A stretch of DNA of 64,000 bases from an uncultured Halanaerobiales bacterium (GCA_964430875.1 CAYSHP010000007.1:1736-65735), one strand, 5' to 3'; positions 22,681-59,465 are shown, counted from the first letter of the stretch. Translations and numbers: made by a program. The notes: a model not told the origin generated them from the letters alone.

Positions 22681-22699
22681 CAAATACCTCCTTTTTAAG

Positions 22700-35646: not shown

Positions 35647-35682
35647 AACAACACTTCCTTTCTATAACTAAGTATATGTTTT

Positions 35683-39685: not shown

Positions 39686-40708
39686 TTATAACTTTCTCTT
39701 AAAGATTTCTGCTGCTTCTAAAATATCCTCTCTATTTACATCTAGATGTGTTACAGCTCTTAGTTTATCATGTAAAACACTAACTCTTAAACCATCTTCT
39801 AATAACTTTTCAGCAAACTGAGCTGAATTTTGCCCTTTTATCTTAAATATAACAATATTTGTATCCACAGTCTCGGGATCAATCTCTACTCTATCTAATT
39901 CAGCTAACTTCTCTGCTAACAGTTTTGCATTTCCATTATCTACCTTTAATCTTTCAAGATTATTTTCAAGAGCATAGATTCCACCGGCTGCAATGATACC
40001 AGCCTGACGCATAGCTCCCCCTAATCTCTGTTTCCAATACCGAGCTTCATTAATAAACTCACTTGATCCCGCCAATACTGAGCCAACAGGTGCTCCTAAT
40101 CCTTTACTTAAATCAAACCAAACCGAATCAAAGTTAGCGGCATATTTTTTTGCAGAAATACCAGTTGCTGCAACTGCATTAAAAAGCCTTGCTCCATCCA
40201 TATGGGTTTTTAAACCCAGTTCATGAGCTCTTTCGGTAAGCTTATTTATTAATTTAAGCGGCCAAACTCTGCCTCCACCTAAATTAGAGGTTTGTTCAAT
40301 TGATAAAACCTTACTCTGTGGGTCATGATAATCTTTAGTCCTAACTGCCTTTTCAAACTGATCTAATTGAAAAATACCTTTTTCACCTTCTAAACCCCGA
40401 ATGGTAGCCCCACTTATGACAGCCGTAGCTCCGCCTTCATAATGAATAGGGTGAGCACTTTGATCCATAATAACCTCATCACCAGGATTACAGTGAACAG
40501 CAAAAGAAATTTGGTTAGCCATCAATCCTGAAGGTAGATAGACTGCTTCTTCTTTACCTAAAAGTTCAGATGCCATTTCTGTTAATTTATTTACACTAGG
40601 ATCTTCAAATAACTGTTCATCACCGACTTCAGCTTCAGCCATGAATTTTCTCATCTCATCTGAGGGTCTTGTACCAGTATCACTAAATAAATCAATCTTT
40701 ATTTCCAT
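39686..40708 (-). CDS. ltaE: Low-specificity L-threonine aldolase (PLP, beta-eliminating lyase fold)
   Basis: The start is moved to ATG at 40708 (GGAGAGG 8 nt upstream). Motifs: DLFSDTGTRP, VYLPSGLMANQ, and a FDLSKGLGAP PLP-Lys region. Confidence 0.82.
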   Translation of the reverse strand: MEIKIDLFSDTGTRPSDEMRKFMAEAEVGDEQLFEDPSVNKLTEMASELLGKEEAVYLPSGLMANQISFAVHCNPGDEVIMDQSAHPIHYEGGATAVISGATIRGLEGEKGIFQLDQFEKAVRTKDYHDPQSKVLSIEQTSNLGGGRVWPLKLINKLTERAHELGLKTHMDGARLFNAVAATGISAKKYAANFDSVWFDLSKGLGAPVGSVLAGSSEFINEARYWKQRLGGAMRQAGIIAAGGIYALENNLERLKVDNGNAKLLAEKLAELDRVEIDPETVDTNIVIFKIKGQNSAQFAEKLLEDGLRVSVLHDKLRAVTHLDVNREDILEAAEIFKRKL

Positions 40709-40722
40709 AAATTTCACCTCTC

Positions 40723-41739: not shown

Positions 41740-42507
41740 TTATATTTCGGGAAGGGCTATCTCAATTCCTCTTGCTTTTTCATTAATTTTTATATCAATT
41801 CCGTAAGCATTACCCAGATTACGGCCAGTCATTATCTCATTGGTATCCCCATCTGCCATTATTGAGCCATCTTTAACAATGATTACTCGGTCACAATACT
41901 TTAAGGCAAGATTAGGATCATGCAAAGCCATAATTACTCCGGTATTACTGTTCCGTGTTAATTTTTTAATTTCTCTCATTAAGAGATTCTTATTTTTAAA
42001 GTCAAGATGGGAAGTAGGTTCATCCATGATTAAATAGCCCGTATCCTGCATAAGGGCTCTAGCAATTAAGATTAGTTGTTTTTCACCACCACTTAGCTGA
42101 TTATACTGTCTATCAGCCAGGTATTCAATATCCAACTTTTTAAGTATCTTAAGAGCTCGCTCATAATGTTTTTGTCCAGGCATCTTTCCAAAACCCAGAT
42201 AGGGGGTTGCGCCCATTGTAACTACATCCAGGACTCTATAGGAAAAAACCACTGAATGCTCCTGGGGTACCATACTAACATATTGAGCAATCTGCCTTTG
42301 ATTTAATTCATCTAAATCAGTTTGATCTATCTTTATTTTTCCTTCGTCTTTTTCTAAAACTCCATTTAAACATTTTAAAATAGTTGTTTTACCAGAACCA
42401 TTAGCACCCAAAAGGCAGGAAAACTCCTGCCTTTTGACCCTGAAGTTTATGTTATTGATGGTTTTAACTTTATTATATGAAAACCCTAAATTTTTAACTT
42501 CTAACAT
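41740..42507 (-). CDS. Type-II ABC importer ATPase (FepC/BtuD/MolC-like)
   Basis: 255 aa. GANGSGKTT, LSGGEKQ, LIMDEP and H-loop HD. Confidence 0.9.
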   Translation of the reverse strand: MLEVKNLGFSYNKVKTINNINFRVKRQEFSCLLGANGSGKTTILKCLNGVLEKDEGKIKIDQTDLDELNQRQIAQYVSMVPQEHSVVFSYRVLDVVTMGATPYLGFGKMPGQKHYERALKILKKLDIEYLADRQYNQLSGGEKQLILIARALMQDTGYLIMDEPTSHLDFKNKNLLMREIKKLTRNSNTGVIMALHDPNLALKYCDRVIIVKDGSIMADGDTNEIMTGRNLGNAYGIDIKINEKARGIEIALPEI

Positions 42508-42524: not shown

Positions 42525-43532
42525 CTATAGGTTGCTTCCACCTAATTCTTGATAACTTTGTTCATATAAAGTATTGTAATATTCATTAACTATTTTTTCA
42601 ATATCTAGATCGTCATACATTTCAGGATATAATTTTTCAGCTAACCAGACAATCCCTAGATAAGAAGAAGGACTTGGAAAATCCCAAGGTTCAACTTTAG
42701 AGGGAAATCTATAAATATTCTCATTTTTAACAGCTTTAAGCTGTTGTAATTCTGGTCGGTTTGATAGATCTTCTATAGTACCACTATAATATTGTGAAAC
42801 TACAATTACATCTGGATTCCATTTAATTAATTCTTCTAAAGAGGTTTTTATAAATCCTGTTTTTACTTCTTTAGCAGGATTAATACCCCCTGCTAATTCG
42901 ATCATGCTGGTCTGTAACATATTCTTGCCAACTGTATCAAATAAATCTGAATTTGCAAAGTATACTTCTTTCCTGTCAATAATTTCATTTGTATTATCTA
43001 CTATCTTAAGTATTTTATTATATTGATCTATTACCTCTTCAGCTCTTTTCTCAGCATCTAAAGCTTTTCCTAAAATTCTGGTAGTTTCCTTGATTTGAGC
43101 ATAACTTTCAGGCACTATTATAATTGAAGCTATACCAAATTCTTTTAATTTCTTGGCAACCTTAGGTCCATCATTGTAGGGAAATAAAATTACTAAATCA
43201 GGATCTACTTCAATGATCTGTTCTAAGTTTAAACCATGTCTTTTCGAACCTACATTTGGAAGTTTTTCTCCTTCATATAATTTTTGGAACAAGGAAATCT
43301 TTTCAAAACTTAGATCAGAAGCTACTAATCTATCTTGAGCATTAAGGCAAAATACAAATTGAGTTGCAGAACGATATGTTGTCACTATTCTATTTACTTC
43401 ATCTGGTACTTCAACTTTTCTACCTGTCATATCAGTGACCAGCTTCCCGGCAAAAGCAGATGAAGTGACCATTAAACCTATGACTAATACCATTGTTATG
43501 ATTATTGCAAATTTTCTAGAATAATTTTTCAA
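42525..43532 (-). CDS. Class-III periplasmic binding protein (FecB/BtuF/MolA-like)
   Basis: 335 aa. TTG start after AAGGAGG. SPase-I signal (SSAFA/GK). PDLVI and NPDVIVV motifs of the PF01497-type fold. Confidence 0.85.
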   Translation of the reverse strand: MKNYSRKFAIIITMVLVIGLMVTSSAFAGKLVTDMTGRKVEVPDEVNRIVTTYRSATQFVFCLNAQDRLVASDLSFEKISLFQKLYEGEKLPNVGSKRHGLNLEQIIEVDPDLVILFPYNDGPKVAKKLKEFGIASIIIVPESYAQIKETTRILGKALDAEKRAEEVIDQYNKILKIVDNTNEIIDRKEVYFANSDLFDTVGKNMLQTSMIELAGGINPAKEVKTGFIKTSLEELIKWNPDVIVVSQYYSGTIEDLSNRPELQQLKAVKNENIYRFPSKVEPWDFPSPSSYLGIVWLAEKLYPEMYDDLDIEKIVNEYYNTLYEQSYQELGGSNL

Positions 43533-43596: not shown

Positions 43597-43962
43597 TTAC
43601 TCTTTTAATTTATCTTTGAATTTTTGAGTAAAATATTTTGTTTCCAATTTAGACATTTCGCGCCTGGCTTCAGTTCTAAAGTTTAAAAAAGTATCCATAA
43701 TTAATCTACCTTTTTTGGTTAAAGTAGAACCTCCACCTTCAGCTCCACCAACCTGTTTTTCTAATAATTTAAATCCCAGCTTCTTTTCTAATTTGTCGAT
43801 TAATTGCCAGGCTTGGCTATAGGACATATTTATGGCTGCAGCAGCTTTGCTTAAAGAACCCAGTTTATCTACAAGTCTTAATATATCTGCTGGTCCGTCA
43901 CCGAAAAGGCGTTCTCCATCTTCTTCTAACCATAGTTTGTAATTCAACTTCATAAAAATCAT
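43597..43962 (-). CDS. ModE N-terminal-domain-like winged-helix regulator (no Mop domains)
   Basis: 121 aa. GDGPADILRLVDKLGSLSKAAAAINMSYSQAWQLIDKLEKKLGFKLLE..GGAEGGGSTLT matches the ModE/LysR-type HTH. The start could instead be ATG at 43953. Confidence 0.75.
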   Translation of the reverse strand: MIFMKLNYKLWLEEDGERLFGDGPADILRLVDKLGSLSKAAAAINMSYSQAWQLIDKLEKKLGFKLLEKQVGGAEGGGSTLTKKGRLIMDTFLNFRTEARREMSKLETKYFTQKFKDKLKE

Positions 43963-43964: not shown

Positions 43965-44567
43965 CTAATCATATTTGTTTTTATAATAAAGGTAATCATC
44001 ATAGTAATCTAAGTCTATGATTACCTTTTGGTTATCAATAGGATAATACTCAACTAAGTCTTTATGTTCTTCAATAAATGGTTTTAATCCCATCGGACCT
44101 TCTAACTTTTTCATTTCAGATAAGTATTTTGTACTAATAATCACCGGATGGCCCGGTTTATCATTATAAATAGGCATTATTATCTCAGAGGATGATTTTT
44201 CAAACTCACTTATAATATTATCAAATATATCTGGTGTAATCAATGGTTGATCTCCCAAAAATATTACCAAGTTTTTTGTGTTATTTGATAAATTATTAAT
44301 ACCCACTTTTAAACTACTGCTCATACCTCTGGTAAAATCAGGATTTTCTTTGATTCTAAAGCGGTTATCATCATAGTAATCTATTTTCTTTTTAACTCTC
44401 TCTGCTTCAGCACCTAAGACCACCCTGATCTCATCATCAATATATTCACTAGCTAATACATTATCAATAACTGTTTCCAGTATTGTCTTATCTTTCCAGG
44501 GTAACAGTTGTTTTAATTTTCCCATTCTATCCGCTTCACCAGCGGCTAATATAATAGCTGTATACAT
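43965..44567 (-). CDS. MobA/MocA-like molybdenum cofactor nucleotidyltransferase
   Basis: The ORF is 43965..44663. The start is moved to ATG at 44567, giving MYTAIILAAGEADRMG..KQLLPW, the NTP_transf_3 signature. This removes the overlap with the permease. Confidence 0.8.
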   Translation of the reverse strand: MYTAIILAAGEADRMGKLKQLLPWKDKTILETVIDNVLASEYIDDEIRVVLGAEAERVKKKIDYYDDNRFRIKENPDFTRGMSSSLKVGINNLSNNTKNLVIFLGDQPLITPDIFDNIISEFEKSSSEIIMPIYNDKPGHPVIISTKYLSEMKKLEGPMGLKPFIEEHKDLVEYYPIDNQKVIIDLDYYDDYLYYKNKYD

Positions 44568-44591
44568 AATAACCATCCTCTTGATTATAAA

Positions 44592-44611
44592 GGGGAGGAA
44601 ATTTCCTCCCC
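44592..44611. other. Perfect 20-nt GC-rich palindrome (intercistronic hairpin)
   Basis: GGGGAGGAAATTTCCTCCCC lies between the permease stop and the MocA start. On the minus strand only UUUAUAAU follows it. Confidence 0.4.
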
Positions 44612-44628
44612 CTTTTATATTTATATCT

Positions 44629-45951
44629 TTATAAAAACAAGAAGTATGCAATAAATACTGCACCTAATACATAAACTAATGTATTTACTTCTTTTCCTCT
44701 ACCAGTAAATAACTTAATTAGAGGGTAAATAATAAAGCCTAAAGCAATTCCATTAGAAATTGAATATGTTAAGGGCATTGCGATCATAGCAATAAAGGCT
44801 GGTAATACTTCAGTGAAATCATCCCAGTCTAAGTCACTTACATTAGTCATCATCATAGTACCTACTATAACTAAAGCAGGGGCAGTAGCTGCACCGGGCA
44901 CTAGACCAATTAATGGTCTAAAGAACAATGCTAAGAAAAATAGGATAGCAGTAACTACACCTGTTAAACCTGTTCTACCACCTTCAGCAACACCGGCAGC
45001 AGACTCAATATATGTTGTAACTGTACTGGTACCAAAGAGCGCACCACCAGTAGTACCAATCGCATCAGCCAAGAGAGCATTACTTGCTTTTGGTAGGTTA
45101 CCATCTTCATCAATATAGCCAGCCTGTTTACTTACTCCTACCAGAGTACCGGCTGTATCAAAAAGGTCAACAAATAAGAATGATAATAAGACTCCTACCA
45201 TACTTAATCTTAAAGCTGAAGCAATATCTAATTGGAATAAAACTTGGTTCCAATCAGCCATCTTAGGCATTGCAAAAATACCATTAAAAGCTGGGGTTAC
45301 ACCATTTGTCCAGCCAAAAGCTGTCGCTATTAAGATACCCCAGAGGAGTGATCCTTTTATTTTAAGGGAATGTAAAATTCCAGTTACTATTAAACCAATC
45401 AGGGCAACTAAAGCAGGCCCTGATAATAATGAACCCATACTTACTAAAGTAGCTTCATCATTAACAACGATTCCAGCATTTTGTAGTCCGATAAAAGCAA
45501 TAAATAAACCTATACCAGCACTAATACCAGTTTTTAGATTCATTGGTATAGAGTTAACTATCTTTTTCCGGACCGGCGTCACACTTAAGACAATAAAGAT
45601 TATACCTTCTATAAATATTATCCCTAAAGCGGTCTGCCAGGATACACCCATACCAATAACTACAGAATAAGCAAAAAATGCATTTAAGCCCATACCTGAA
45701 GCTAGTGCAAATGGATAATTTGTTAAGAAAGCCATCGCCAAAGTACCTAAAATAATACCAGCAATTGTAGCAATAAATACTCCATTAAAAGGCATCCCTG
45801 CTTCACTAAGGATTGATGGGTTTACAAATATAATATAAGCCATGGTTAAAAAGGTTGTAAATCCAGCAATTACCTCAGTCTTAGGATCGGTATTGTTCTC
45901 TTTAAGTTTAAATACCTTTTCCAGGAAGCCTCCGTCATTCATTTCGTTCAT
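44629..45951 (-). CDS. NCS2/AzgA-type adenine-guanine-hypoxanthine permease
   Basis: ATG at 45951 (RBS AAGGAGGG). TEVIAGFTTFLTMAYIIFVNP is the hallmark N-terminus of PbuG/GhxQ-type permeases. Confidence 0.9.
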   Translation of the reverse strand: MNEMNDGGFLEKVFKLKENNTDPKTEVIAGFTTFLTMAYIIFVNPSILSEAGMPFNGVFIATIAGIILGTLAMAFLTNYPFALASGMGLNAFFAYSVVIGMGVSWQTALGIIFIEGIIFIVLSVTPVRKKIVNSIPMNLKTGISAGIGLFIAFIGLQNAGIVVNDEATLVSMGSLLSGPALVALIGLIVTGILHSLKIKGSLLWGILIATAFGWTNGVTPAFNGIFAMPKMADWNQVLFQLDIASALRLSMVGVLLSFLFVDLFDTAGTLVGVSKQAGYIDEDGNLPKASNALLADAIGTTGGALFGTSTVTTYIESAAGVAEGGRTGLTGVVTAILFFLALFFRPLIGLVPGAATAPALVIVGTMMMTNVSDLDWDDFTEVLPAFIAMIAMPLTYSISNGIALGFIIYPLIKLFTGRGKEVNTLVYVLGAVFIAYFLFL

Positions 45952-47813: not shown

Positions 47814-48902
47814 TTACTCTAATTTTAATGCACCAAAGTTACAACGGGTGATACATAGTCCACAGCCTGCACATTTATCAGGATCGATGACAATATAGTC
47901 TCTACTTTCATTATATGAAATAGCATCATATACACAACTGGTGATACATAAGCCACAAGTGGTACAGTTTTCTTCAATTACTGTTGGTACAACTGTATTA
48001 AAGTTAGCTTCTTCTTTAACCACCTGAGCAGTTAAACCTTTAATATCATTTACACTTTCATATCCATTTTCATCTAAGAATTTATTTAATTCTTCATTTA
48101 TTTTCTTATAGACACTAGGACCATTTACAATAGCTTCTGTACAAACCTGTACAGCAGATGCTCCAGCCATAAACATCTTGGCAGCTCTTAAGCCGCTATC
48201 AATACCACCTACACCAATAACAGGAATATCAACATTATTGGAGGCTTGGTAAACTGCTCTTAAGGCCAGTGGGAATATAGCTTCACCTGATAGCCAGCCA
48301 AATCCATTGTCACTACCCATTACTGGTTTTCCAGTTTTGGGATCAATATCTAAGGTTGGGCCAAAGGAATTAATCAATACAATACCATCTGCACCAGCTT
48401 CTTCAGCCGCTTTAGCAAATTCTGGTATGTCAATTCCCGGACTTAATTTAACGAAAACTGGAATATCGACTTCATCTTTAGCTGCTTTAATACTTTCTTC
48501 CATGGGAGTTGTGTCATCACCTAAATAGTGAGTAGAAAGTTCTAAAGCATCTGCATACTTTTCTACCTTTTTAGCTAACTCTCTAATTTGATCTTTTGTA
48601 TAACCAATACCTGCTATAACGGGTAAGCCTAATTCTCTAATCACAGGATATTCCTCTTCTAGCCAATGTTCTGGAGTTAGTTCGGACCATAGTTCAGTAT
48701 TTAAGAAACCACCTTTTATTCTAGCCATGTTTGGTCTCGGTACTTTAGCAGCCGTAGTAGAGATAGTCTTTGTAACGATTGCACCAGCCCCACCATTTTT
48801 GGCTCTTTTTGCTGCTTTTGCATCTTTAACTGGCGGACCGGCCGCCGGCATAACGGGATTATCTAATTCAATTCCTGCAAATTCTACTTTTAAATCAGCC
48901 AT
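47814..48902 (-). CDS. DHOD/DPD-like FMN oxidoreductase with C-terminal 2x[4Fe-4S] ferredoxin domain (PreA-like)
   Basis: ATG at 48902 (RBS GAGGAGTG). The TIM-barrel DHOD family N-terminus reads FAGIELDNPVMPAAGP. C-terminal CTTCGLCITSC and CAGCGLCITRC motifs. Confidence 0.85.
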   Translation of the reverse strand: MADLKVEFAGIELDNPVMPAAGPPVKDAKAAKRAKNGGAGAIVTKTISTTAAKVPRPNMARIKGGFLNTELWSELTPEHWLEEEYPVIRELGLPVIAGIGYTKDQIRELAKKVEKYADALELSTHYLGDDTTPMEESIKAAKDEVDIPVFVKLSPGIDIPEFAKAAEEAGADGIVLINSFGPTLDIDPKTGKPVMGSDNGFGWLSGEAIFPLALRAVYQASNNVDIPVIGVGGIDSGLRAAKMFMAGASAVQVCTEAIVNGPSVYKKINEELNKFLDENGYESVNDIKGLTAQVVKEEANFNTVVPTVIEENCTTCGLCITSCVYDAISYNESRDYIVIDPDKCAGCGLCITRCNFGALKLE

Positions 48903-48907
48903 CAATA

Positions 48908-49486
48908 TCACTCCTCATTTTTATTAATTTTCATAATTGTCTTTCTTAATTCTTGATAAATATCTTCAAAAACAGATTCATGGTTTTTTTCTTTAACCCT
49001 ATACATACTTATATCATTTCTGCTTCTTATCTTATCTAAAAACTTGTTATGCTCATCTTTGATTACAGCCAATACTGGTTTTTTACTGTCCATAATTTCA
49101 AACACTTTTTCTTGAAATTTTAAAGCCTTCAGCTCAAACCTCCCAAGTTCATCCATGACTAATATATCTCGAAATTTGCTTCCAATTTCTAAAAACTGAA
49201 CTCCTTTATCATCAAAAACCTCGGGATTAACTTGCCAATCTTGGGAAGGATGGTCTCTTTTCGCAAAAATCTGACATTTCTTTTTAAACCCTGCTGAATC
49301 TTTTCCCTGCCAATGGTAATAGTAATCCAGAGGATCTGTTAGGTAAAAACTTAACCACTGATTTATATTGCCTGTTCGACCTACTACAAATCCTCCGGGT
49401 TTTAGATTCAATTTATCTAAAATTCTTTTTACAATAGTACTTTTACCGACATACTTATCTCCGGTAATCAATATATTGTTTGGCAT
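48908..49486 (-). CDS. P-loop NTPase, THEP1/PF03266-like
   Basis: 192 aa. ILITGDKYVGKST (Walker A) and ILVMDELGRFEL (Walker B region) parallel Aquifex THEP1 (IIITGEPGVGKTT, IIIDEIGKMEL) as I remember it. The start overlaps the Mo-subunit stop. Confidence 0.7.
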   Translation of the reverse strand: MPNNILITGDKYVGKSTIVKRILDKLNLKPGGFVVGRTGNINQWLSFYLTDPLDYYYHWQGKDSAGFKKKCQIFAKRDHPSQDWQVNPEVFDDKGVQFLEIGSKFRDILVMDELGRFELKALKFQEKVFEIMDSKKPVLAVIKDEHNKFLDKIRSRNDISMYRVKEKNHESVFEDIYQELRKTIMKINKNEE

Positions 49487-50475
49487 TAATTATTTTTTTC
49501 CTCTAATGCATCTAATATTTTTTCTGGTGTAATCGGTAGACTTTTAATTCTAACACCGATTGCATCATAAACTGCATTTGCCACGGCAGGACTAGCAGCA
49601 ATTAAAGTAGGTTCACCTACTCCTTTAGAGCCAAAAGGTCCATCAGAATCTTTATTTTCAATTAAGGTACTTTCAAACTCGGGAATATCTTTAATACTGG
49701 GAACCAGGTAATTAGTCATATCGGCATTTAAGGTAATACCATCTTTAATCACTTGATCTTCCATTAAAGCCATACCTAATCCCTGAACTGTACCACCTTC
49801 AATTTGACCGTGTACATTTTGCGGATTAATAGCTTTTCCTACATCTAAAGCCGTATAGACATTCATTACTTCAATAATACCAGTATCGGTATCTACTTCT
49901 ATATCCATCACCTGAGTCATAAAAGTATAGGCTACATAGTTTTTCTCAGTTTGGCCTGTTTTCTTATCAGGGGCATAAGTTTTAGGAAAAAAGCTTGCTT
50001 CAGCACTCAGTTTTTTTCCTTTTTCTTCAATTATGTCTGCTAATTGCCAATAAGTTATCTTTTTATCCTCATCACAAGCGTATAATTCACCCTCCTTAAC
50101 AGTTAATTCTGGATGGTTACTGTTAAAATAAAGGCTGCCATGGTGATAGATTTTACCCATAACTTCTTCGGCCGCTTCTCTTACTGCATTACCGGAAAAG
50201 AAGGTTTGTCTACTAGCAGAAGTAGAACCGGAATTTTTTGCATTGTGAGTATCCTGACCGACAATTTCAATATAGGAAGGATCTATTTTTAAGACTTCCG
50301 CAGCAATCTGAATCATTGTTGTTAAAAAGCCTTGACCCATATCTGCACCAGCTGTTCTTAATTTAATCTTCTTGTCTGGGGTGATTTCTATTTCAGCAAT
50401 GGAATGATCGGGAAAACCCTCACCATATCCAAAGCCGAACATTATTGAGGCCATACCTCTTCCTTTTTTTCTCAT
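49486..50475 (-). CDS. Molybdenum hydroxylase, C-terminal half of the Mo-pterin subunit (NdhM-like)
   Basis: 329 aa. Aligns to residues about 440-765 of the full-length paralogue at 57168..59465 and contains GVGEPTL. It has an ATGA overlap with the N-terminal half and a GGGAGGGGGAG RBS. Confidence 0.9.
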   Translation of the reverse strand: MRKKGRGMASIMFGFGYGEGFPDHSIAEIEITPDKKIKLRTAGADMGQGFLTTMIQIAAEVLKIDPSYIEIVGQDTHNAKNSGSTSASRQTFFSGNAVREAAEEVMGKIYHHGSLYFNSNHPELTVKEGELYACDEDKKITYWQLADIIEEKGKKLSAEASFFPKTYAPDKKTGQTEKNYVAYTFMTQVMDIEVDTDTGIIEVMNVYTALDVGKAINPQNVHGQIEGGTVQGLGMALMEDQVIKDGITLNADMTNYLVPSIKDIPEFESTLIENKDSDGPFGSKGVGEPTLIAASPAVANAVYDAIGVRIKSLPITPEKILDALEEKNN

Positions 50476-51791
50476 TTGTTAATCTCCCCCTCCCATTTCG
50501 ACAGATTAATTGCTTCTTCTATTGTTCTTTTAGTATTTACACTTTTCCCTAACATCTGACCATTGGGAGTAATTGAACCGGTATCATAAGCATTTTGATA
50601 TCTAAATTGAGCAGGATCCATATTTAACTTCTGAGCAATTATATCAATTTGTGATTCATAAGCAAATGCCATCTGGGTTGTACCAAAACCGCGCATAGCA
50701 CCACCATAGGTGTTATTGGTATAAACTGCATAAGAAGTACCACGTACATTGGATACATTATATGGACCTGTACAGTGATACATTCCTTTATGAACTACAG
50801 CCGGGCCACTAGAAGCATAAGCTCCGGTATCTCCGATTACAAATACCTGCCAGGCAGTTAGATATCCATCATTTGTTACACCTGTCTTAGCTCTAATGGT
50901 AAGAGGGTGTCTTTTTGATTGAGAAATCATTGATTCTTCTCTTGTATATTCTAATTTAACCGGTCTATTTACACGCATTGCTGCTAAAGCAAGGTGAATA
51001 TGAACTGAAACATCTTCTTTTTTACCAAAAGCTCCCCCAATTGCAGCATTTATTATTCTAATCTTATCTTTCGACATATTTAAAGATTGAGCAACATCAG
51101 CTTGGGTATCATGTAACCACTGAGAAGCAGTCCAAATCTTTATTTCACCAGATTTTTCATCATAGACTGCATAGCCTGCCTCATTTTGTATAGGAAGTTG
51201 GTCGATATGTTGAGTCTGATAATCGTTTTTTACTATAAAATCAGCTTCTTCAAACCCTTTATCTACATCACCTTTTTCTAGATGATGATCAACTAAGATA
51301 TTTTTGCGGTTTACATCGGGACTTAAATATTCTGTACATAAATCATCTAAATCCTCATGAATGGCAGGAGCGTCTTTTTCGATGGCTCGATGTGCGTTAT
51401 CAATAACTTCTAATTTTTCTACTTCTACTTCGATTTTTTCTCTTGCTTTTAAGGCAGCTTCGGCTGTTTCAGCTACAACTATGGCTAAAGCATCTCCCAT
51501 AAATCTCATTTTTTCACCAATTTTAATTAAAACAGGTTGGTCTTTAATGATTAGACCAAATTTATTGAGATCTGGGTAGTCTGCTTCTGTAATGATATCT
51601 ACGACGCCCTTAACTTTCTTAGCCTTACTAATATCTAAATCTTTTAAAATCGCATGAGGATAAGTTGCTCTTTTGACTTTAACATGTAAATAATCATCAA
51701 ACTTTAAATCAGATGGGTAATTAGCTTGTCCGGTGACTTTATCCTTTGCATCTACTTTTAAGATGTCTTCTCCTACATATCTTTTAGACAT
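50472..51791 (-). CDS. Molybdenum hydroxylase, N-terminal half of the Mo-pterin subunit (NdhL-like)
   Basis: The start is moved to ATG at 51791, giving MSKRYVGEDILKVDAKDKVTG. Contains GGAFGKKE and GGAMRGFG motifs. Confidence 0.9.
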   Translation of the reverse strand: MSKRYVGEDILKVDAKDKVTGQANYPSDLKFDDYLHVKVKRATYPHAILKDLDISKAKKVKGVVDIITEADYPDLNKFGLIIKDQPVLIKIGEKMRFMGDALAIVVAETAEAALKAREKIEVEVEKLEVIDNAHRAIEKDAPAIHEDLDDLCTEYLSPDVNRKNILVDHHLEKGDVDKGFEEADFIVKNDYQTQHIDQLPIQNEAGYAVYDEKSGEIKIWTASQWLHDTQADVAQSLNMSKDKIRIINAAIGGAFGKKEDVSVHIHLALAAMRVNRPVKLEYTREESMISQSKRHPLTIRAKTGVTNDGYLTAWQVFVIGDTGAYASSGPAVVHKGMYHCTGPYNVSNVRGTSYAVYTNNTYGGAMRGFGTTQMAFAYESQIDIIAQKLNMDPAQFRYQNAYDTGSITPNGQMLGKSVNTKRTIEEAINLSKWEGEINK

Positions 51792-52266
51792 TATCTTCAC
51801 CCCCACTTTGCATCTTGTGGGATGCCTCTTTGACAGCATCAACTATCTTGACATATCCGGTACATCTACATATATTACCGGATAAACCTCTTTTGATTTC
51901 TTCATCACCTGGATTTATATTATCATCGAGTAACTTTTTGCTGGACATAATCATTCCGGGTATACAAAAACCACACTGTACTGCCCCGGTTTCAATAAAG
52001 GACTGCTGGATTGGGTGTAACTTCTCTTTATCTCCTAATCCTTCTACAGTCTGTATCTCAGCACCATCAGCCTGGGGAGCTAATACCAGACAAGAAGCTA
52101 CCACTTTATTATTCATGATTACTGTACAAGCACCACATTCACCTTTTCCACAACCTTCTTTAGTTCCTGTTAGTCCAAGATCTTCTCTTAAAAGGTCTAG
52201 TAAGCGGGTATGTGGTTTAACATCTACTTCTCTTTTTTGACCATTAACTGTTAATTTAATTTTCAT
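51784..52266 (-). CDS. Molybdenum hydroxylase [2Fe-2S] subunit
   Basis: 160 aa. CGKGECGACTV and CGFCIPG..CRCTGY. Confidence 0.95.
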   Translation of the reverse strand: MKIKLTVNGQKREVDVKPHTRLLDLLREDLGLTGTKEGCGKGECGACTVIMNNKVVASCLVLAPQADGAEIQTVEGLGDKEKLHPIQQSFIETGAVQCGFCIPGMIMSSKKLLDDNINPGDEEIKRGLSGNICRCTGYVKIVDAVKEASHKMQSGGEDNV

Positions 52267-53168
52267 TGGTTAATCACCTCATTTAGGGCACTTTTAGTTA
52301 TATTAAAAGCGACCTGTCTGCGGTATTTAGCTGTACCTCTAATATCATCAATCGGTGATATTTTATCTGAAACTATCTGTGCTATTTCTTCTATATTTAC
52401 ATTATTAATTTTTTTGGCAAGTAATTCATCTTCTGCTTTTTTAATTCTAAGTGGTGTTGGAGCAGCTGAACCCACACATATTCTACTTTCTTTAATTTTT
52501 TTATCTTCATCAAACACAATATTAAAAGCTAAACTTATTGATGAAATAACGAGGGCTTTTCTTTTACCTACTTTAACCCAGGCCCCTCTGTACATTTCAT
52601 CTCTTAAAGGAAGAATTATTTTTTCAACAATTTCTCCCTTTTTTAATACATTTTTCTTGGGCCCTGTAAAAAATTCATTGGCATCTACAATACGTTCCCC
52701 ATCTTTTGAAATCAGTTTTAATTTAGCATTATAGACTAAAAGGGGTGGTAGTAAATCACCGGCTGGTGATGATGTAACAATATTCCCACCAATAGTACCC
52801 CTACTTCTAATCTGGGGTGAACCGACATCAGCCGCTGCCTGTTGAATGACAGGGAAAAGTTCTTTGATCTTATCTAATTTATAGAGTCTTTCATGAGTGA
52901 CCATAGAACCAATTTCGACCTTATCATCATAAATCTTGATCTCTTTAAATTCACTTACCCAGTTTAAATCGAGCCATCTATCAACTTTATATAGATTATT
53001 ATAATGTTCAACTAAAAGATCAGTACCTCCCGCTATTACGGTAAGGGCATCCTCATAATCTCTCAATACCTGCATTAATCCTTCTTTTGTTTGTGGCCTA
53101 AAGTAACTGTTAAAATCTTCTCCAGAAGTCTTTGGCCTGTTGTTTGCATTTTTTGATTGTTTTTTCAT
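52263..53168 (-). CDS. Molybdenum hydroxylase FAD-binding subunit
   Basis: 301 aa. IAGGTDLLV and TIGGNI motifs. The only in-frame start gives a 59-nt overlap with ssnA. Confidence 0.88.
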   Translation of the reverse strand: MKKQSKNANNRPKTSGEDFNSYFRPQTKEGLMQVLRDYEDALTVIAGGTDLLVEHYNNLYKVDRWLDLNWVSEFKEIKIYDDKVEIGSMVTHERLYKLDKIKELFPVIQQAAADVGSPQIRSRGTIGGNIVTSSPAGDLLPPLLVYNAKLKLISKDGERIVDANEFFTGPKKNVLKKGEIVEKIILPLRDEMYRGAWVKVGKRKALVISSISLAFNIVFDEDKKIKESRICVGSAAPTPLRIKKAEDELLAKKINNVNIEEIAQIVSDKISPIDDIRGTAKYRRQVAFNITKSALNEVINQ

Positions 53169-54447
53169 AATCTAAAACTTTCACCTCCTGGTTTTCCATC
53201 AAAACATGTCCATTTACAATTGTACTATCAACTAAACCCCCATTGAAACCAAATAGGATATGGTAAAAATAATTTTCATCGGTTATCGGAGTCGGAGATT
53301 TATAATCTACAACTATAATATCAGCGGGCACATCTTTTTTAATAATACCTAACTCTTTATCAAAATATTGTTTTGCTATCTTTCGATTATTTTCAAAAGC
53401 AATTTTATTAATATCTTCTCCACCTAGATTAGGATCTAAATTGTTATGCTTTTGTAAAAGATCGGCAACATTGATACTTTCAAACATGTCTGTGGTATAA
53501 CCATCAGTACCAAGTCCTATTGTTAAATCCTTATCTAAAGCTTTTCTTAAGTTAATTGCACCTACTGCATTTCCCATATTGGATTCAGGGTTGTGGATTA
53601 AAAACACATTATTATCCGCAAGTATTTCATATTCACTTTCAGATAAATGTACTCCATGAATTGCCAGTGAATCTTCTCTTAATATATTTAACTTATCAAA
53701 ACGATCTGCTAGATTCTTATAACCGCGTTTTTTACTATCTTCTTCATCTACTTTGCCTTCAGCTGCATGAAAGTGTGTTGGTGTATTGGTGCTTTCAGCA
53801 AGTTCAGCAACCTCTCTTAAAGTTTTATCACTTAAAGTAAAGGAGGCATGTAGACCAATGGCGGGAGTAATAAAATCGCTATTTAGCTTCCTAGCACGCT
53901 TAATAAAACGCTCATTTTCTTTGATTGCCTGTTTTGCTTTTTGTTCACCATGACGGTCAGAAATCTCATAAGATAGACTGGTTCTAAGTTTAGACTTTAC
54001 AACTGCCTCTGAGATTATATCAAGACTGTTTTCGATATATCCATAACTTGCATGGTGGTCAAAAATAGTCGTTGTACCACTTCGTATACTTTCAACTAAA
54101 GCATATATCGTACTGTAATAGATATCTTCACTATTTAGGGTTTCATCTAAACGCCACCATAGTTTTTCTAATATTTCTTCAAAATTTTGTGGTGGTAGCT
54201 CGGTTTTTAAATCCATACCACGTGCAAAAGTACTGTAAAAATGCATATGAGAATTTATCATTCCAGGCATGATTACTTTACCTTTTACATCTTTAAAGTC
54301 TGCTTCCTGATATCTAACCTTTAAATTATCAGTTTTACCATAATCTTTTATAATACCTTCATCAATTAATACAGCACCATCATTAATAACAGGGTCATTT
54401 GAATTTAAGGTGATTAATACACCATTTCCATAAAGTTTCAAGTTCAA
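53110..54447 (-). CDS. ssnA: SsnA-type amidohydrolase (putative aminohydrolase of the purine cluster)
   Basis: 445 aa. SHMHFYS, LWWRLD, FDHHAS, HAAE, GTDG, YKSPTP and a C-terminal FWRRF parallel E. coli SsnA as I remember it. Confidence 0.85.
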   Translation of the reverse strand: MNLKLYGNGVLITLNSNDPVINDGAVLIDEGIIKDYGKTDNLKVRYQEADFKDVKGKVIMPGMINSHMHFYSTFARGMDLKTELPPQNFEEILEKLWWRLDETLNSEDIYYSTIYALVESIRSGTTTIFDHHASYGYIENSLDIISEAVVKSKLRTSLSYEISDRHGEQKAKQAIKENERFIKRARKLNSDFITPAIGLHASFTLSDKTLREVAELAESTNTPTHFHAAEGKVDEEDSKKRGYKNLADRFDKLNILREDSLAIHGVHLSESEYEILADNNVFLIHNPESNMGNAVGAINLRKALDKDLTIGLGTDGYTTDMFESINVADLLQKHNNLDPNLGGEDINKIAFENNRKIAKQYFDKELGIIKKDVPADIIVVDYKSPTPITDENYFYHILFGFNGGLVDSTIVNGHVLMENQEVKVLDYEKTIKKCKQQAKDFWRRF

Positions 54448-55821: not shown

Positions 55822-55822
55822 T

Positions 55823-56299
55823 TTATTCACTCCTGTCTTTGTTAACAACACTTTCAATCGCTTCTATGATTTGTTGATAACCGGTACATCTACAGAGATT
55901 ACCCTCTATAGCAGTTTTAATCTCTTCTCTATCAGGATCCGGCTTTTCATTGAGTAATGCCTTTGCCGACATTAACATACCGGGTGTACAAAAACCACAC
56001 TGTACGGCTTGATGGTCGATAAATGCTTCTTGTAAAGGATCTAGCTTACCATCGATCTCTAATCCTTCCACAGTTAAGACTTCACTGCCATCAATCTGGA
56101 AAGTGTAGACCATACAGGAGTTAACCGCTTTGCCATCTAAAACTACTGTACAGGCTCCACATTCACCTATACTACAGCCTTCTTTAACTCCTGTCAGGTG
56201 TAATCTGTCTCTTAAGGTATCAAGTAGTCTTTCATCTGACGGAACTTTTATATTATGTTCTTTGCCATTAACGGTTAAGGTTACATTAACTTCTTCCAT
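55823..56299 (-). CDS. Xanthine dehydrogenase-type [2Fe-2S] subunit
   Basis: 158 aa. CSIGECGACTV and CGFCTPG..CRCTGY. Confidence 0.95.
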   Translation of the reverse strand: MEEVNVTLTVNGKEHNIKVPSDERLLDTLRDRLHLTGVKEGCSIGECGACTVVLDGKAVNSCMVYTFQIDGSEVLTVEGLEIDGKLDPLQEAFIDHQAVQCGFCTPGMLMSAKALLNEKPDPDREEIKTAIEGNLCRCTGYQQIIEAIESVVNKDRSE

Positions 56300-56301
56300 T
56301 A

Positions 56302-57171
56302 TTACTGCACCTCCTTAACTATTGACTGGAGGGCTCTCTTTAATAGATTACCAACAACAGGTCTTTTATAAGGAGTAGACCATCTTTCACCTGTAATACC
56401 GACCATTTCCTCGCTGGTTTTTTCAGCTAATTGTTCATAATCTATGGCTGAGAGGTCAGCTCCTGCAAGTTCTTTTTCAATTTCTTTAAATCTTGTAGCA
56501 GTAGGAGTAGCAGAGCCAAATGCTACCCTAATATCATTAAATTTATTGTCTTTAACTTTGGTAATTACAGCTAAATTAATTCTAGCTATAGCAACAGCCT
56601 GACGTCTTTTTACCTTTTGATAACAATCATAGTATTCGTCCTGTATATATGGTACCTTTACTTCCGTCATTATTTCATCTTCTTTACGGTCAGTACAATA
56701 AGGACCAGTAATAAATTCACTTAAAGGTAGTTCCCTCTTGCCGTGACTGGAATGTAAAACCACCGAAGCATCAAGAGCAATTAGGGCAGTTACTAAATCA
56801 GCTGCGGGTGAAGCATTATTGACATTACCGCCCACCGTTCCTCGATTTCTAATTTGGGTAGAGCCGATAACTTCCGCTGCTTTTTGTAAGATAGGAAACT
56901 TTTCATTTATTAATACGGAGTCCATAATTTCACTGTGAGTAACTAAAGCTCCCAGCCTTAAATACTCTCCGTTATCTTCTATAACATCTAAACCGGAAAT
57001 AGCGCTAATATCTAAAAGATACTTCATCTCTTTTAGATCATCACTTTCATGATGAATCTGTACTAACATATCGGTTCCACCGGCAACCATTTTCACTTCG
57101 TTTTTCTTATCAGCTAGTATATCTATAGCTTCATCTAGACTATTGGCCTTTAACGCTTCAAATTCTATCAT
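56302..57171 (-). CDS. Xanthine dehydrogenase-type FAD-binding subunit
   Basis: 289 aa. VAGGTDMLV and TVGGNV. Confidence 0.9.
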   Translation of the reverse strand: MIEFEALKANSLDEAIDILADKKNEVKMVAGGTDMLVQIHHESDDLKEMKYLLDISAISGLDVIEDNGEYLRLGALVTHSEIMDSVLINEKFPILQKAAEVIGSTQIRNRGTVGGNVNNASPAADLVTALIALDASVVLHSSHGKRELPLSEFITGPYCTDRKEDEIMTEVKVPYIQDEYYDCYQKVKRRQAVAIARINLAVITKVKDNKFNDIRVAFGSATPTATRFKEIEKELAGADLSAIDYEQLAEKTSEEMVGITGERWSTPYKRPVVGNLLKRALQSIVKEVQ

Positions 57172-59465
57172 TTATGATCAACCCCTTTGTGTAAGTCCTT
57201 GCCCACAATGATTTTTTCGAGGTTAAGAGGTAATGATCTAATCCTCTTTTTAGTTGCATTAGCAACAGCATTAGCAATTGCAGCTGCTCCTAATTCAAGG
57301 GTAGGTTCACCAATTGATTTAGCTCCAAAAGGACCGTTTGGATCTGGATTTTCAACAATAATTGGCTCTATATCGGGCATATCTTTGACAGTCGGTATCA
57401 TATATTCATCAAAGTTAGTGTTTTCTATATATCCTTGATCTGTTTCTATTTCTTCCATAACACCATAACCTAAGCCCATGGAAACACCGCCATAGATTTG
57501 TCCTTTAACATTAGCGGGGTTAATAGCGCGTCCTACATCATGGGCAGCTGTCATGTTTAATACATCTATTTCACCGGTGCCAGTATCAACTTCAACTTCA
57601 GCGACCTGACATCCATAGACATAAGTGAAATAGGGGCGACCATGGCCAGTTTCTTCATCCCAAGAAATATCAGGGGATACATACCAACCATAGGTAGTCA
57701 GATAAACACCTTCCATAGCGGCTTTAGAAGCCATTTCATTAATACTCATAATCTCAACATCTTTTTGACCATAAATAGAGCCATCTTTGATATAGATATC
57801 TTCTTTATCTTGGTCATATTTATCTGAAATATATTCTTTTATCTTTTCAATTAAATTATCAGCAGCTTTCTTAACAGCATTACCACCGATTAGAGTTGCC
57901 CGCGAAGCAACTGTTGAACCACTATCCGGTGAAATTAAGGTGTCAACCTGCATAAAGTTAATCTTATCAGTATCTAAACCTAATGCTTCCGCAGCCATCT
58001 GACAGTAGACAGTTTTAAGTCCCTGTCCGTTTTCTGCTAAGCCAGAATAAAGGCTTACACTACCGTCTTTTTTAAGTGATAAGATAATACCAGCTGCATC
58101 GATTGCTTCTGCACCTAAACTACAACCTCTAAAACTAATAGAAAGTCCAATACCTTTTTTCTTATCACCGGGTTGTTCTTTACTATATTCTTTATATTTT
58201 TCAACAAAGTTACTTTTTTCTACTGCCTTTGTTAATACTTCTTCTAAACTAACTTCATGATTATCAAGTTTTTGTCCACTGGCTGTAAATGAGTTATTAT
58301 GGTAGATATTTTTCATCCTCAATTCAACTGGATCCATATCTAACTCATCTGCTAGTTCATCCATCAAGGATTCCTGTGCAAAGATAACCTGTGGAGAACC
58401 ATAACCACGCATCGCACCTGTGTATACATTATTTGTATAGTATCCATAAGTATCTGTTTTAACATTATCTACTTCATAAGGACCTGTGGCCTGTACTACA
58501 GATCTCCAGGTTACAAAAGGAGTCTGGCAGGCATAGGCTCCACTGTCTGCAACAGCTTCAATTTCCATAGCCTGAATCTTGCCATCTTCAGTTGCACCTA
58601 TCTTATACTTCATATGATAGGGATGTCTTTTATAACTTTCTTTAATAGATTCATCTCGACTATTTACAAGTTTTATAGGCCTTTCAGTTTTTAAAGCTAA
58701 AACTGAAGCTCTAGCGGCCATAGATGAAATAACTTCATCCTTACCTCCAAAAGAACCGCCCATATGGTTTTGAACAATTCTTACCTTATTTAAGTCTTCC
58801 TGTAAAACGGTTGCTACTGCATTTTGGGTAGCAAAAGGATTTTGAACTGAACCATAAACGGTGACAGTTGAATTTTCTTGATAAGGAACTGCAACTACCG
58901 CTTCCGGTTCAATATATGACTGTTCAATAAAGGGAGTATCATATTCCCTTTCTATAATTACATCTGAGTTTTCAAAACCTTTTTTCGGATCTCCTTTTCT
59001 CAAAGGGTGATGGATGACTTGATTGTCTTCTAAATCTTCATGTACTAACTGTGCATCTTCTTCTCTTGCCTCTAAAGGGTCATATATACCTTCTAACTCT
59101 TCATATTCCACCTCAATCTTTTCAGCTGCTTTAGCAGCCTGCTTAGCTGTTTCAGCTGCAACTACGGCTATACCATCACCTATATATAATGCTTTTTCTT
59201 TAGCTAGCACTTGTTGATTTTCAATAATTACACCAAATTCATTATTAGGTATATCGGCGGCTGTAATTACTGCTACTACGCCCGGCATTTTTTCCGCGTT
59301 TGTAGTATCTATACTCTTGATCTTCGCATAAGGATATTCAGTATGAAGAACTTTTCCATAAAGCATATCTGGAAATCTCATATCTGCTCCATACTTTGCT
59401 TTACCGGTTACTTTTTCGTAAACATCTACTCTTTTTTCTGATTTGTTTACATGTGCAAACTCCAT
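57168..59465 (-). CDS. Xanthine dehydrogenase-type molybdopterin subunit (full length)
   Basis: 765 aa. GGSFGGKDE, GAMRGYG and SIGEPTL motifs. Confidence 0.95.
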   Translation of the reverse strand: MEFAHVNKSEKRVDVYEKVTGKAKYGADMRFPDMLYGKVLHTEYPYAKIKSIDTTNAEKMPGVVAVITAADIPNNEFGVIIENQQVLAKEKALYIGDGIAVVAAETAKQAAKAAEKIEVEYEELEGIYDPLEAREEDAQLVHEDLEDNQVIHHPLRKGDPKKGFENSDVIIEREYDTPFIEQSYIEPEAVVAVPYQENSTVTVYGSVQNPFATQNAVATVLQEDLNKVRIVQNHMGGSFGGKDEVISSMAARASVLALKTERPIKLVNSRDESIKESYKRHPYHMKYKIGATEDGKIQAMEIEAVADSGAYACQTPFVTWRSVVQATGPYEVDNVKTDTYGYYTNNVYTGAMRGYGSPQVIFAQESLMDELADELDMDPVELRMKNIYHNNSFTASGQKLDNHEVSLEEVLTKAVEKSNFVEKYKEYSKEQPGDKKKGIGLSISFRGCSLGAEAIDAAGIILSLKKDGSVSLYSGLAENGQGLKTVYCQMAAEALGLDTDKINFMQVDTLISPDSGSTVASRATLIGGNAVKKAADNLIEKIKEYISDKYDQDKEDIYIKDGSIYGQKDVEIMSINEMASKAAMEGVYLTTYGWYVSPDISWDEETGHGRPYFTYVYGCQVAEVEVDTGTGEIDVLNMTAAHDVGRAINPANVKGQIYGGVSMGLGYGVMEEIETDQGYIENTNFDEYMIPTVKDMPDIEPIIVENPDPNGPFGAKSIGEPTLELGAAAIANAVANATKKRIRSLPLNLEKIIVGKDLHKGVDHK

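Follow-up and report, generated by a model that had tools for sequence, protein, structure and literature searches.

Two adjacent minus-strand open reading frames (ORFs) were analyzed in a 64,000-nucleotide (nt) stretch of DNA from an uncultured Halanaerobiales bacterium (GCA_964430875.1 CAYSHP010000007.1:1736-65735), hereafter referred to as a whole as the window. One ORF encodes a PreA-like Fe-S flavoprotein that is very probably a UacX-type reductase of 2,8-dioxopurine (yanthine), with ferredoxin as its probable electron donor. The other encodes a THEP1-like P-loop NTPase, which has about an even chance of being an accessory factor that is driven by ATP or GTP and helps to supply the molybdenum (Mo) hydroxylases, and not an enzyme of purine breakdown. 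Taken jointly, these two assignments form the reading that we moderately favor. Both ORFs lie in an operon for the anaerobic "reductive" or "2,8-dioxopurine" route of uric acid breakdown, in a Halanaerobiales version; the two ORFs and their domains were found as described in the original prediction, which had placed them next to a split Mo hydroxylase.

The probable UacX-type reductase and the urate pathway

The PreA-like ORF (47814..48911, minus strand) combines a DHO_dh domain (PF01180, E 1.2e-42) with a C-terminal Fer4 dicluster, in which eight Cys arranged as two CxxCxxCxxxC motifs make up one 2x[4Fe-4S] domain. Its top NCBIfam and PDB matches are the PyrD of dihydroorotate dehydrogenase (DHOD) B and dihydropyrimidine dehydrogenase (DPD), and the protein and its UacX-like family are homologous to E. 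coli PreA over their full length (hhalign E 3.5e-36). Both observations would fit a normal DPD of the PydAc/PreA type, or a DHOD, with its partner encoded elsewhere. This explanation is quite improbable, as the protein missed every curated cut-off, scoring 213 against 269 and 207 against 270 for the NCBIfam PyrD models and 183.8 against 335 bits for the PreA equivalog. It is also at odds with the gene content of the window, where no PreT or PyrK-type domain was found: PreT gave no tblastn match at E<=1e-3, YgfT matched only 43 residues in the Fe-S region of the PreA-like gene itself, and Pfam detected no ORF with a Pyr_redox_2, DHODB_Fe-S_bind, or NAD_binding_1 domain. The protein had indeed been described as lacking a PreT partner. 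Pyrimidine-pathway genes are not among the neighbors either.

Two features of the UacX-like family (3868 proteins at E<=1e-20) further argue against a normal DPD or DHOD: an E-L-S-T-H-Y-x-G motif (residues 121–128, window 48540–48517; alignment A2) is invariant, and a 7-residue deletion takes out the Cys loop (N-x-S-C-P) found in PreA, DPD, and DHOD B. The catalytic Cys of this loop is C671 in pig DPD, and with the loop deleted the proton donor of the UacX-like family must be another residue; since DPD and DHOD rely on the loop to transfer a proton, its loss bears on mechanism. C. chromiireducens PydAc, E. coli PreA, and mammalian DPD have homologous FMN barrels followed by a C-terminal 2x[4Fe-4S] domain, and PydAc, which like the window protein has no NAD(P)H module and which uses ferredoxin, is an earlier precedent for a partner-less enzyme of the UacX type (PMC7332683). 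However, all three act on pyrimidine substrates, PreA and DPD keep the N-x-S-C-P loop, and PydAc has two ferredoxin domains and sits in a Pyd cluster. Motifs apparently common to the N-terminus of YgfK and the UacX-like proteins in a MAFFT alignment were dropped; hhalign matched the Fe-S region only (57% probability).

The anaerobic reductive (2,8-dioxopurine) urate pathway was described in two 2025 studies, including that of Li et al. (PMC12507026). In this pathway, XdhD (i.e., DOPDH) reduces urate to 2,8-dioxopurine, YgfK dearomatises 2,8-dioxopurine, and SsnA opens the ring, while HyuA, YgeW or UacY, YgeY, and YgeX complete the route to pyruvate. C. difficile has UacX in place of E. coli YgfK; together with SsnA, UacX, a PF01180 protein that has an FMN site and Fe-S clusters and is without an FAD domain, reduces and opens 2,8-dioxopurine, and yanthine is turned into ureidomethylhydantoin by C. 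difficile UacX (CdUacX) and SsnA when methyl viologen is supplied in reduced form (Li et al. 2025, PMC12507026). The suggestion, made for the PreA-like protein before this analysis, that a purine-ring C=C bond is reduced ahead of hydrolytic opening matches this already published chemistry. The accompanying description of the E. coli ygf cluster as the converse arrangement was mistaken, as YgfK holds both an FMN substrate site and an FAD/NAD(P)H site (Li et al., PMC12507026) and is therefore a fused functional equivalent of UacX.

The window protein and C. difficile UacX (Q181U4) are alike in their DHO_dh-type FMN barrel and Fe-S clusters, in having no FAD/NAD(P)H domain, in sharing a uricolytic gene cluster with SsnA and a Mo enzyme of the xdh type, and in the proposed donor, ferredoxin; the window cluster differs in that the gene follows a split Mo subunit and the NTPase gene, and in having an OTC/YgeW-like carbamoyltransferase instead of UacY. 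E. coli YgfK, which is NAD(P)H-dependent, catalyzes the equivalent step of the pathway, and its gene also neighbors ssnA, ygfM, and xdhD, but it is a protein of 1032 amino acids (aa) with a GltD-like FAD/NAD(P)H module and shows no tblastn similarity to the window protein. In the window, SsnA is encoded four genes upstream of the UacX-like gene, and YgeY, the carbamoyltransferase, and a permease are encoded in the same operon. A scan of one genome per GTDB species yielded 80 loci, 20 of them syntenic with the window and 60 non-syntenic; linkage of the UacX-like gene to SsnA and xdh genes was found in the 20 syntenic loci as well as in loci L083–L088 and spans Bacillota and Thermotogota, which again speaks against a normal DPD or DHOD. 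Relatives with 62–68% identity in L084/L085, Halobacteroides halobius, and Anoxybacter come after the genes for SsnA and for the FAD, [2Fe-2S], and Mo subunits (SsnA-FAD-FeS-Mo), in window-like order, and a Desulfotomaculum relative (59% identity) lies in a C. difficile-type cluster composed of XdhC, MocA, YgeX, YgeY, UacY-like, SsnA, permease, UacX-like, and HyuA genes.

With the N- and C-terminal pieces of the split Mo subunit designated MoN and MoC, the module SsnA, FAD, FeS, MoN, MoC, (NTPase), UacX corresponds to ygfK-ssnA-ygfM-xdhD of E. coli. Homology to the published CdUacX and a similar gene context suggest 2,8-dioxopurine as the substrate of the window enzyme. The adjacent split Mo hydroxylase would convert urate to this compound, the UacX-type enzyme would reduce it with low-potential electrons, probably from ferredoxin and not from a PreT/GltD-type NAD(P)H module, and SsnA, as the putative ring-opening partner of the nearby reductase, would then open the reduced ring hydrolytically.

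Some observations weigh against this assignment. It was made through relatives defined by their context, with the 59%-identical Desulfotomaculum protein as a stand-in for CdUacX (Q181U4), and the window protein has one Fe-S domain compared to two in C. chromiireducens PydAc. Both Mo enzymes encoded in the window are approximately 30% identical to E. coli XdhD and XdhA alike, and both are without the XdhD-specific insertion that contains Glu606 of E. coli XdhD; we infer from adjacency only that the split hydroxylase is the one of the two that makes 2,8-dioxopurine. Finally, tblastn with E. coli YgeX and YqeA found no YgeX or carbamate kinase gene in the window, suggesting that the pathway genes are dispersed or continue past position 64000. 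The reductase is nothing new in kind; it extends the 2025 UacX/2,8-dioxopurine pathway to halophilic Halanaerobiales and to Petrotoga.

Family, gene junctions, and synteny of the THEP1-like NTPase

The NTPase matched PF03266 with 98.2 bits (cut-off 23.9) over 167 of the 168 model positions and had no other Pfam match; a protein of a Halanaerobiales metagenome-assembled genome is 100% identical to it. Its Walker A motif is G9-x4-G14-K15-S16 and its Walker B motif is M111-D112-E113-L114-G115; G9, G14, K15, and all five Walker B residues are invariant in 19 sequences, with S or T at position 16 (alignment A1). The protein missed the cut-off of the NCBIfam equivalog for the canonical NTPase (NF010248; 89.7 bits, cut-off 156), indicating a divergent THEP1-like subfamily. 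THEP1 (1ye8) was the single match of a PDB sequence search (E 2e-7) and, for the AlphaFold model (predicted local distance difference test, pLDDT, 92.3), the only Foldseek match at E<=0.001 (E 7e-9, TM scores 0.71/0.78); sequence and predicted fold thus agree in identifying the NTPase as a divergent THEP1-like P-loop protein. Aquifex aeolicus THEP1 (aq_1292, 1YE8) and human NTPCR share its Pfam family, fold, and Walker A and B motifs, whereas identity to A. aeolicus THEP1 is 24% and the window subfamily has an extra segment at about residues 37–75. Neither XdhC, YqeB, YqeC, nor MobB fits as an identity for the NTPase, which belongs to none of these families by sequence or fold (the MobB structure 4oyh ranked 37th in Foldseek, with a probability of 0.18). 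The C-terminal half of the DVU_1551-family NTP transferase was also rejected as an NTPase_1 domain; the window NTPase gives no match to that model.

The stop codon of MoC and the start codon of the NTPase gene share one base (TAATG at 49486), as had been claimed, and the junctions on both sides of the NTPase gene are tight in the 20 syntenic loci, with spacings of −17 to +14 nt from MoC (one start being mis-called) and −8 to +33 nt to the UacX-like gene; the NTPase start overlaps the MoC stop in 17 of the 20. The NTPase gene ends with TGA at 48910–48908. Whether this stop overlaps the start region of the PreA-like gene, also part of the original prediction, depends on the start codon: the mechanically called GTG at 48911 gives a 4-nt overlap, whereas the ATG at 48902 leaves a gap of 5 nt. 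The ATG is the likelier true start, because database relatives are 362 aa long and because it has a GAGGAG 8 nt upstream, within the 3′ end of the NTPase gene.

MoN and MoC share 4 nt. Splitting of the Mo subunit, correctly noted before, is also seen in H. halobius and Anoxybacter fermentans, both with complete genomes, and in a draft assembly of Petrotoga, which shows that it is real and not an assembly artefact; the orthologue in L084 is unsplit (761 aa, 51% identical). The order MoN, MoC, NTPase, UacX, adenine deaminase is retained in the 20 Halanaerobiales loci, and Petrotoga carries the whole block, including the NTPase gene. In H. halobius and Anoxybacter, the UacX-like gene comes immediately after the split Mo subunit and no NTPase gene intervenes, and in L084 the unsplit Mo enzyme is likewise followed by UacX without an NTPase gene. 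The NTPase is therefore a lineage-specific insertion that is dispensable for the split enzyme, and the idea that it accompanies the split of the Mo subunit is ruled out.

Possible roles of the NTPase

Unbiased clustering of the neighbors in the 60 non-syntenic loci gave an ATP-binding cassette (ABC) ATPase of the FecE type (25 loci), a FecCD permease (23), and a Peripla_BP_2 substrate-binding protein (SBP; 19) as the top recurrent genes. Targeted queries placed a FecCD-type importer in 27 of these loci, no more than 2.5 kb away from the NTPase gene in 25; FecCD density was 9.3 per 100 kb within that distance and 0.35 per 100 kb in the 2.5–10 kb flanks, a 27-fold difference (binomial p 7e-11, not corrected for phylogeny). 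MobB is found 17–36 nt upstream of the NTPase gene in eight loci and MocA within 1.7 kb in five more, and an xdh-type large subunit is encoded nearby in 12. Altogether, 40 of the 60 loci have at least one of these four features, i.e., the importer (its binding protein being MolA-like), MocA, MobB, or an xdh-type enzyme. In a metagenome scan, some 31 of 62 non-syntenic loci repeated the links to Mo or importer genes despite short contigs, some of which duplicate genome loci, and several sediment contigs have MocA 9–25 nt downstream of the NTPase gene.

These links occur in different operon architectures, including NTPase, SBP, FecCD, ATPase, (permease), FAD, FeS, Mo, MocA (Anaerotignum, Longibaculum, Thomasclavelia, Sporanaerobium); FAD, FeS, Mo, ModE, SBP, FecCD, ATPase, NTPase (Faecalimonas); NTPase, (DUF364), MocA, Mo, FeS, XdhC, FAD (Gemmatimonadota, WOR-3); MobB followed by NTPase, at the spacing given above (Oscillospiraceae and other Clostridia); and FecCD, ATPase, SBP, NTPase, (MoeA), with MoeA placed after the NTPase gene in L065. 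In Methanocorpusculum, the transporter is divergent from the NTPase gene. In the Gemmatimonadota and WOR-3 loci, the protein encoded between NTPase and MocA is a DUF364/DUF4213 protein (Pfam "putative heavy-metal chelation"; L128 10449–11837, where it is fused to MocA, L033 11363–12103, and L047).

Genome context thus supports a functional tie between the NTPase subfamily and the supply side of Mo hydroxylases, i.e., import, cofactor nucleotidylation, and maturation. The NTPase had been put forward as a Mo maturation factor on the ground that the window contains no XdhC or YqeB/YqeC-type genes. Their absence was confirmed by tblastn at E<=1e-3 with E. coli queries (YqeB and YqeC, together with YgfK, PreT, YgeX, and YqeA, all without a match) and by a Pfam scan of window ORFs of at least about 100 aa outside 31042–38299, which found no XdhC, YqeC, SelD, or Pyr_redox_2 domain. 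While comparative genomics supports an accessory role, the argument from absence is contradicted by co-occurrence: YqeC, split YqeB/XdhC, and MocA share an operon with NTPase relatives in L089 (SBP, FecCD, methyltransferase (MT), ATPase, YqeC, YqeB pieces, XdhC, HyuA, NTPase, MocA::ModE), in L012 (importer, YqeC, YqeB pieces, HyuA, and a MocA::ModE-like fusion), and in L104. Maturation factors also co-occur with the NTPase in L068, and XdhC genes are found 6 kb from it in Halanaerobium (L015). The NTPase would therefore be a companion of these factors, and a role as their substitute is ruled out. MobB, an accessory GTPase of molybdopterin guanine dinucleotide synthesis, and XdhC, YqeB, and YqeC resemble it as small accessory proteins encoded beside molybdenum cofactor (Moco) nucleotidyltransferases or Mo enzymes, and the NTPase gene adjoins MocA much as MobB adjoins MobA; however, MobB, YqeB, and YqeC co-occur with the NTPase instead of being replaced by it, and are unrelated to it in sequence and fold. 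Three ORFs make up YqeB in H. halobius (L086 15836–17755) and in L012 (1107–2989) and L089 (6660–8598), namely XdhC_C, XdhC_CoxI, and a piece of some 275 aa that resembles the C-terminus, as compared to a single 541-aa protein in E. coli.

The proposed supply chain would comprise a FecCD-type (type II) importer with a MolA-like protein, a TehB-like methyltransferase, MocA, MobB, MoeA, YqeB, and YqeC; in the window lineage, the NTPase gene would have moved into the structural operon and become translationally coupled to the Mo subunit. Tentatively, the subfamily may act as an as yet unrecognized accessory NTPase in the trafficking of Mo cofactor or trace elements, working with MocA, MobB, or MoeA, the importer, and the methyltransferase in delivering Mo (or tungsten or selenium) or molybdopterin cytosine dinucleotide (MCD) to enzymes of the xanthine dehydrogenase family. 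A role in Mo (or selenium) supply or maturation is plausible and unproven, and any biochemical role of the NTPase is one that we infer. Literature searches found nothing linking THEP1/PF03266 to molybdenum, in line with the earlier statement that no Mo-enzyme role is known for the family, and neither 2025 urate-pathway paper mentions an NTPase.

Several findings weigh against an accessory role in Mo supply. Neither Mo nor transporter genes are seen in 20 of the 60 non-syntenic loci; the loci are phylogenetically non-independent; and Tex, an energy-coupling factor (ECF) S-component, NTPase, MT, and CoaX form a conserved group in an unrelated context. Across the 20 syntenic loci, identity is 31–84% for the NTPase and 63–96% for UacX, i.e., the NTPase evolves faster, and H. 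halobius and Anoxybacter do without it, as described above. The low conservation relative to its neighbors, these two genomes, and the third of relatives with no Mo or transporter gene nearby, as well as literature searches that gave no physiological function for THEP1 or human NTPCR, would be consistent with an ordinary housekeeping THEP1-type nucleoside-triphosphatase that was inserted into the operon by chance and carried along. We consider this unlikely, as 17 of 20 loci preserve the overlapping MoC stop in spite of that divergence and Petrotoga has the gene too, as NTPase relatives recur by Mo-related genes in at least six operon architectures and two domains of life and are fused to partners from these same neighborhoods, and as the cut-off of the canonical THEP1 equivalog is missed.

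The fusions bear on another explanation. Among the best 150 of 4750 NTPase relatives from an exhaustive profile search, ten have 404–453 aa, representing nine fusions of NTPase_1 with an S-adenosylmethionine (SAM) methyltransferase and one with an ABC ATPase (ABC_tran); none is fused to a Moco enzyme, which adds to the points against an accessory role in Mo supply. The fusion partners recur in operons with the order SBP, FecCD, MT, ATPase, NTPase (L019, L022, L089, and L142). The fusions are the strongest links of the NTPase and count in favor of a tie to the supply chain, but they indicate trace-element uptake or processing, close to importer and methyltransferase, no less than insertion of the cofactor. 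The NTPase could be part of an ABC importer, or could join the TehB-like methyltransferase in processing the imported item, e.g., by acting on an oxyanion or small molecule as a kinase or NTPase, and its link to Mo would be indirect. Contexts with only a transporter in Methanocorpusculum, Peptococcaceae, and Thermaerobacter and NTPase-MT pairs next to an ECF S-component also agree with this. Such an importer function seems somewhat unlikely for the window protein, given that the window-clade NTPase gene lies 5.4 kb from an SBP and ATPase pair that has neither permease nor methyltransferase and is coupled to the Mo subunit instead, and given that the NTPase gene directly adjoins MocA or MobB in many loci without a transporter.

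The TehB-like SAM methyltransferase is encoded within the importer operon in L019, L022, L089, and L142, after the NTPase in the Tex, ECF S-component, NTPase, MT, CoaX loci (L027, L035, L049, L073, L118, and L131), and as a fusion with NTPase_1 in nine representatives (P0187 and others); a chalcogen or other oxyanion is one possibility for its substrate. In L084/L085, genes for YedE-like Sulf_transp, TusA-like, and Se_S_carrier proteins (16281–17817) are located about 5 kb from a uricolytic cluster with an unsplit Mo subunit, and represent candidates for selenium supply.

The position of the NTPase gene amid purine-catabolic genes, in an operon with adenine deaminase, xanthine permeases, and xanthine dehydrogenase, could suggest that it feeds purine catabolism by hydrolyzing nucleoside triphosphates towards free purines; in vitro hydrolysis of ATP and GTP by THEP1 (PMC1079890) is compatible with this. 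Such a function is most improbable, as relatives are found by transporters, MocA, MobB, and MoeA in loci without purine genes, including those of methanogens, and as turnover of THEP1-type enzymes is described as slow (PMC2700126); hydrolysis of nucleoside triphosphates for fermentation would also be expected to waste energy.

An accessory role of the NTPase in Mo supply is a useful lead. The strong genome-context link of its family to Mo-cofactor and import genes was not found described in the literature searched. If true, it would provide the first physiological role, none having appeared since 2005, for a family that includes human NTPCR. Comparatively little is understood of how selenium-dependent Mo hydroxylases mature, a process with a bearing on urate disposal in the gut and on gout; an extra, testable accessory factor and a candidate dedicated importer would help to make this question accessible to experiment.

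Candidate cofactor supply genes and other features of the window

The minus strand holds most genes of the window, which has a GC content of about 30–36%, and includes a purine-catabolic supra-operon that spans 63416 to ~41740 (Table 1). In order, this supra-operon encodes YgeY, the OTC/YgeW-like carbamoyltransferase, a xanthine/uracil permease, an unsplit xdh-type enzyme, an 8-oxoguanine-deaminase-like amidohydrolase whose position is kept in all syntenic loci, and SsnA; then the second xdh-type enzyme (FAD, 2Fe-2S, MoN, MoC), the NTPase, and the PreA-like protein; and finally adenine deaminase, a second permease, a MocA-like protein, a protein with a helix-turn-helix (HTH) similar to the ModE N-terminus, a Peripla_BP_2 protein, and an ABC ATPase. 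No terminator-like sites were found on the minus strand between 59465 and 44612; counts from the promoter and terminator scans were at chance level.

Table 1. Features of the purine-catabolic supra-operon and a HyuA-like gene in the window.
Feature	Position	Strand	Basis and remarks
YgeY peptidase	63416-62175	(-)	TIGR03526, 729 bits; 73% identity to E. coli YgeY
OTC/YgeW-like carbamoyltransferase	62154-61171	(-)	NCBIfam scores all under cut-offs
Second, unsplit xanthine-dehydrogenase-type enzyme	55823..59465	(-)	Mo subunit (765 aa), FAD subunit, and 2Fe-2S subunit
Amidohydrolase between the two xdh-type enzymes	54454-55857	(-)	NCBIfam 8-oxoguanine deaminase, 587 bits (cut-off 532)
SsnA amidohydrolase	53110..54447	(-)	NCBIfam NF005540, 563 bits (cut-off 444); 35% identity to E. 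coli SsnA
FAD subunit of split Mo hydroxylase, YgfM/XdhB-like	52263..53168	(-)	Pfam FAD_binding_5 and CO_deh_flav_C
[2Fe-2S] subunit of split Mo hydroxylase	51784..52266	(-)	Pfam Fer2_2 and Fer2
MoN, N-terminal piece of Mo large subunit (hammerhead and MoCoBD_1)	50472..51842	(-)	Pfam; start uncertain, relatives 423-437 aa
MoC, C-terminal piece of Mo large subunit (MoCoBD_2), 329 aa	49486..50475	(-)	Pfam PF20256, E 4e-69
THEP1-like P-loop NTPase, 192 aa	48908..49486	(-)	Pfam NTPase_1 PF03266, E 6e-28
UacX-like Fe-S flavoprotein, 362 aa	47814..48902	(-)	Pfam, NCBIfam; alternative GTG start 48911
MocA-like molybdenum cofactor cytidylyltransferase (YgfJ/PucB-type)	43965..44663	(-)	Pfam NTP_transf_3; TIGR03310, E 1.5e-49, 168.6 bits (cut-off 186)
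ModE-N-terminal-like HTH protein, 121 aa, without Mop domains	43597..43962	(-)	Pfam HTH_1; TIGR00637, E 1.7e-16, under cut-off
MolA-like Peripla_BP_2 substrate-binding protein	42525..43532	(-)	Pfam PF01497
ABC transporter ATPase, FecE/BtuD type	41740..42507	(-)	Pfam and NCBIfam
HyuA-like hydantoinase/dihydropyrimidinase	21292..22683	(-)	34% identity to E. coli HyuA; 47% to the in-cluster HyuA-like gene of H. halobius

The MocA gene (44663–43965) had gone unmentioned before; its MocA-like domain begins at residue 36, and translation probably starts near 44567. In L089 (10554–11525), L012 (5051–6016), and L104 (5000–5962), a ModE-N-terminal-like HTH is fused to MocA (NTP_transf_3), while in the window the ModE-N-terminal-like domain is a separate protein encoded between MocA and the binding protein. 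PDB matches of the window SBP are 4ovk, 4hn9, and 3psa/3psh (HI_1472, i.e., MolA; E 1.4e-32), and the Anaerotignum SBP, which matches HI_1472 with E 6e-21, belongs to the same Peripla_BP_2 subgroup. MolBC-A imports molybdate (PMC4031551), and the SBPs of the NTPase-relative loci share their Peripla_BP_2 subgroup and their FecCD-type permeases with this type II ABC molybdate/tungstate importer of Haemophilus influenzae (HI1470-72); in contrast, the window copy has no permease gene, and neither NTPase_1 nor a methyltransferase is described for MolBC-A. A further point against Mo as the element supplied is that the closest PDB entries to the SBPs carry no assigned ligand, so that tungstate, selenium species, or others are possible. 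No FecCD permease match was found in the window: the ABC ATPase gene starts 17 nt after the binding-protein gene and is followed by AzlC and AzlD (43532–40723), with no FecCD between or after them. The same permease-less SBP-ATPase pair is seen in L001–L010, while L019, L020, L022, and L089 have SBP, FecCD, (MT), ATPase; either the permease of the window-clade importer is encoded elsewhere or this importer is decaying.

A Beta_elim_lyase (threonine-aldolase-like) gene is located at 39686–40717 on the minus strand, after AzlCD, and Anoxybacter has a similar gene (serine hydroxymethyltransferase, SHMT/Beta_elim_lyase-like) after the carbamoyltransferase; its product could replace YgeX-type chemistry or serve glycine metabolism. 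The HyuA-like gene lies about 25 kb from the cluster and adjoins PhoU and TetR genes. The ribokinase/pseudouridine-glycosidase-like and nucleoside-ABC-like genes at 31042–38299 were read as translations only and were omitted from the Pfam domain scan; the remaining scanned ORFs of the window comprise chemotaxis, signaling, transport, and unrelated genes only. Positions 2380–15112 include genes for two GGDEF/PAS proteins and a MEDS-HD-GYP protein as well as a CheA-CheW (two copies)-CheY-MCP chemotaxis cluster, all unrelated to the two genes discussed here.

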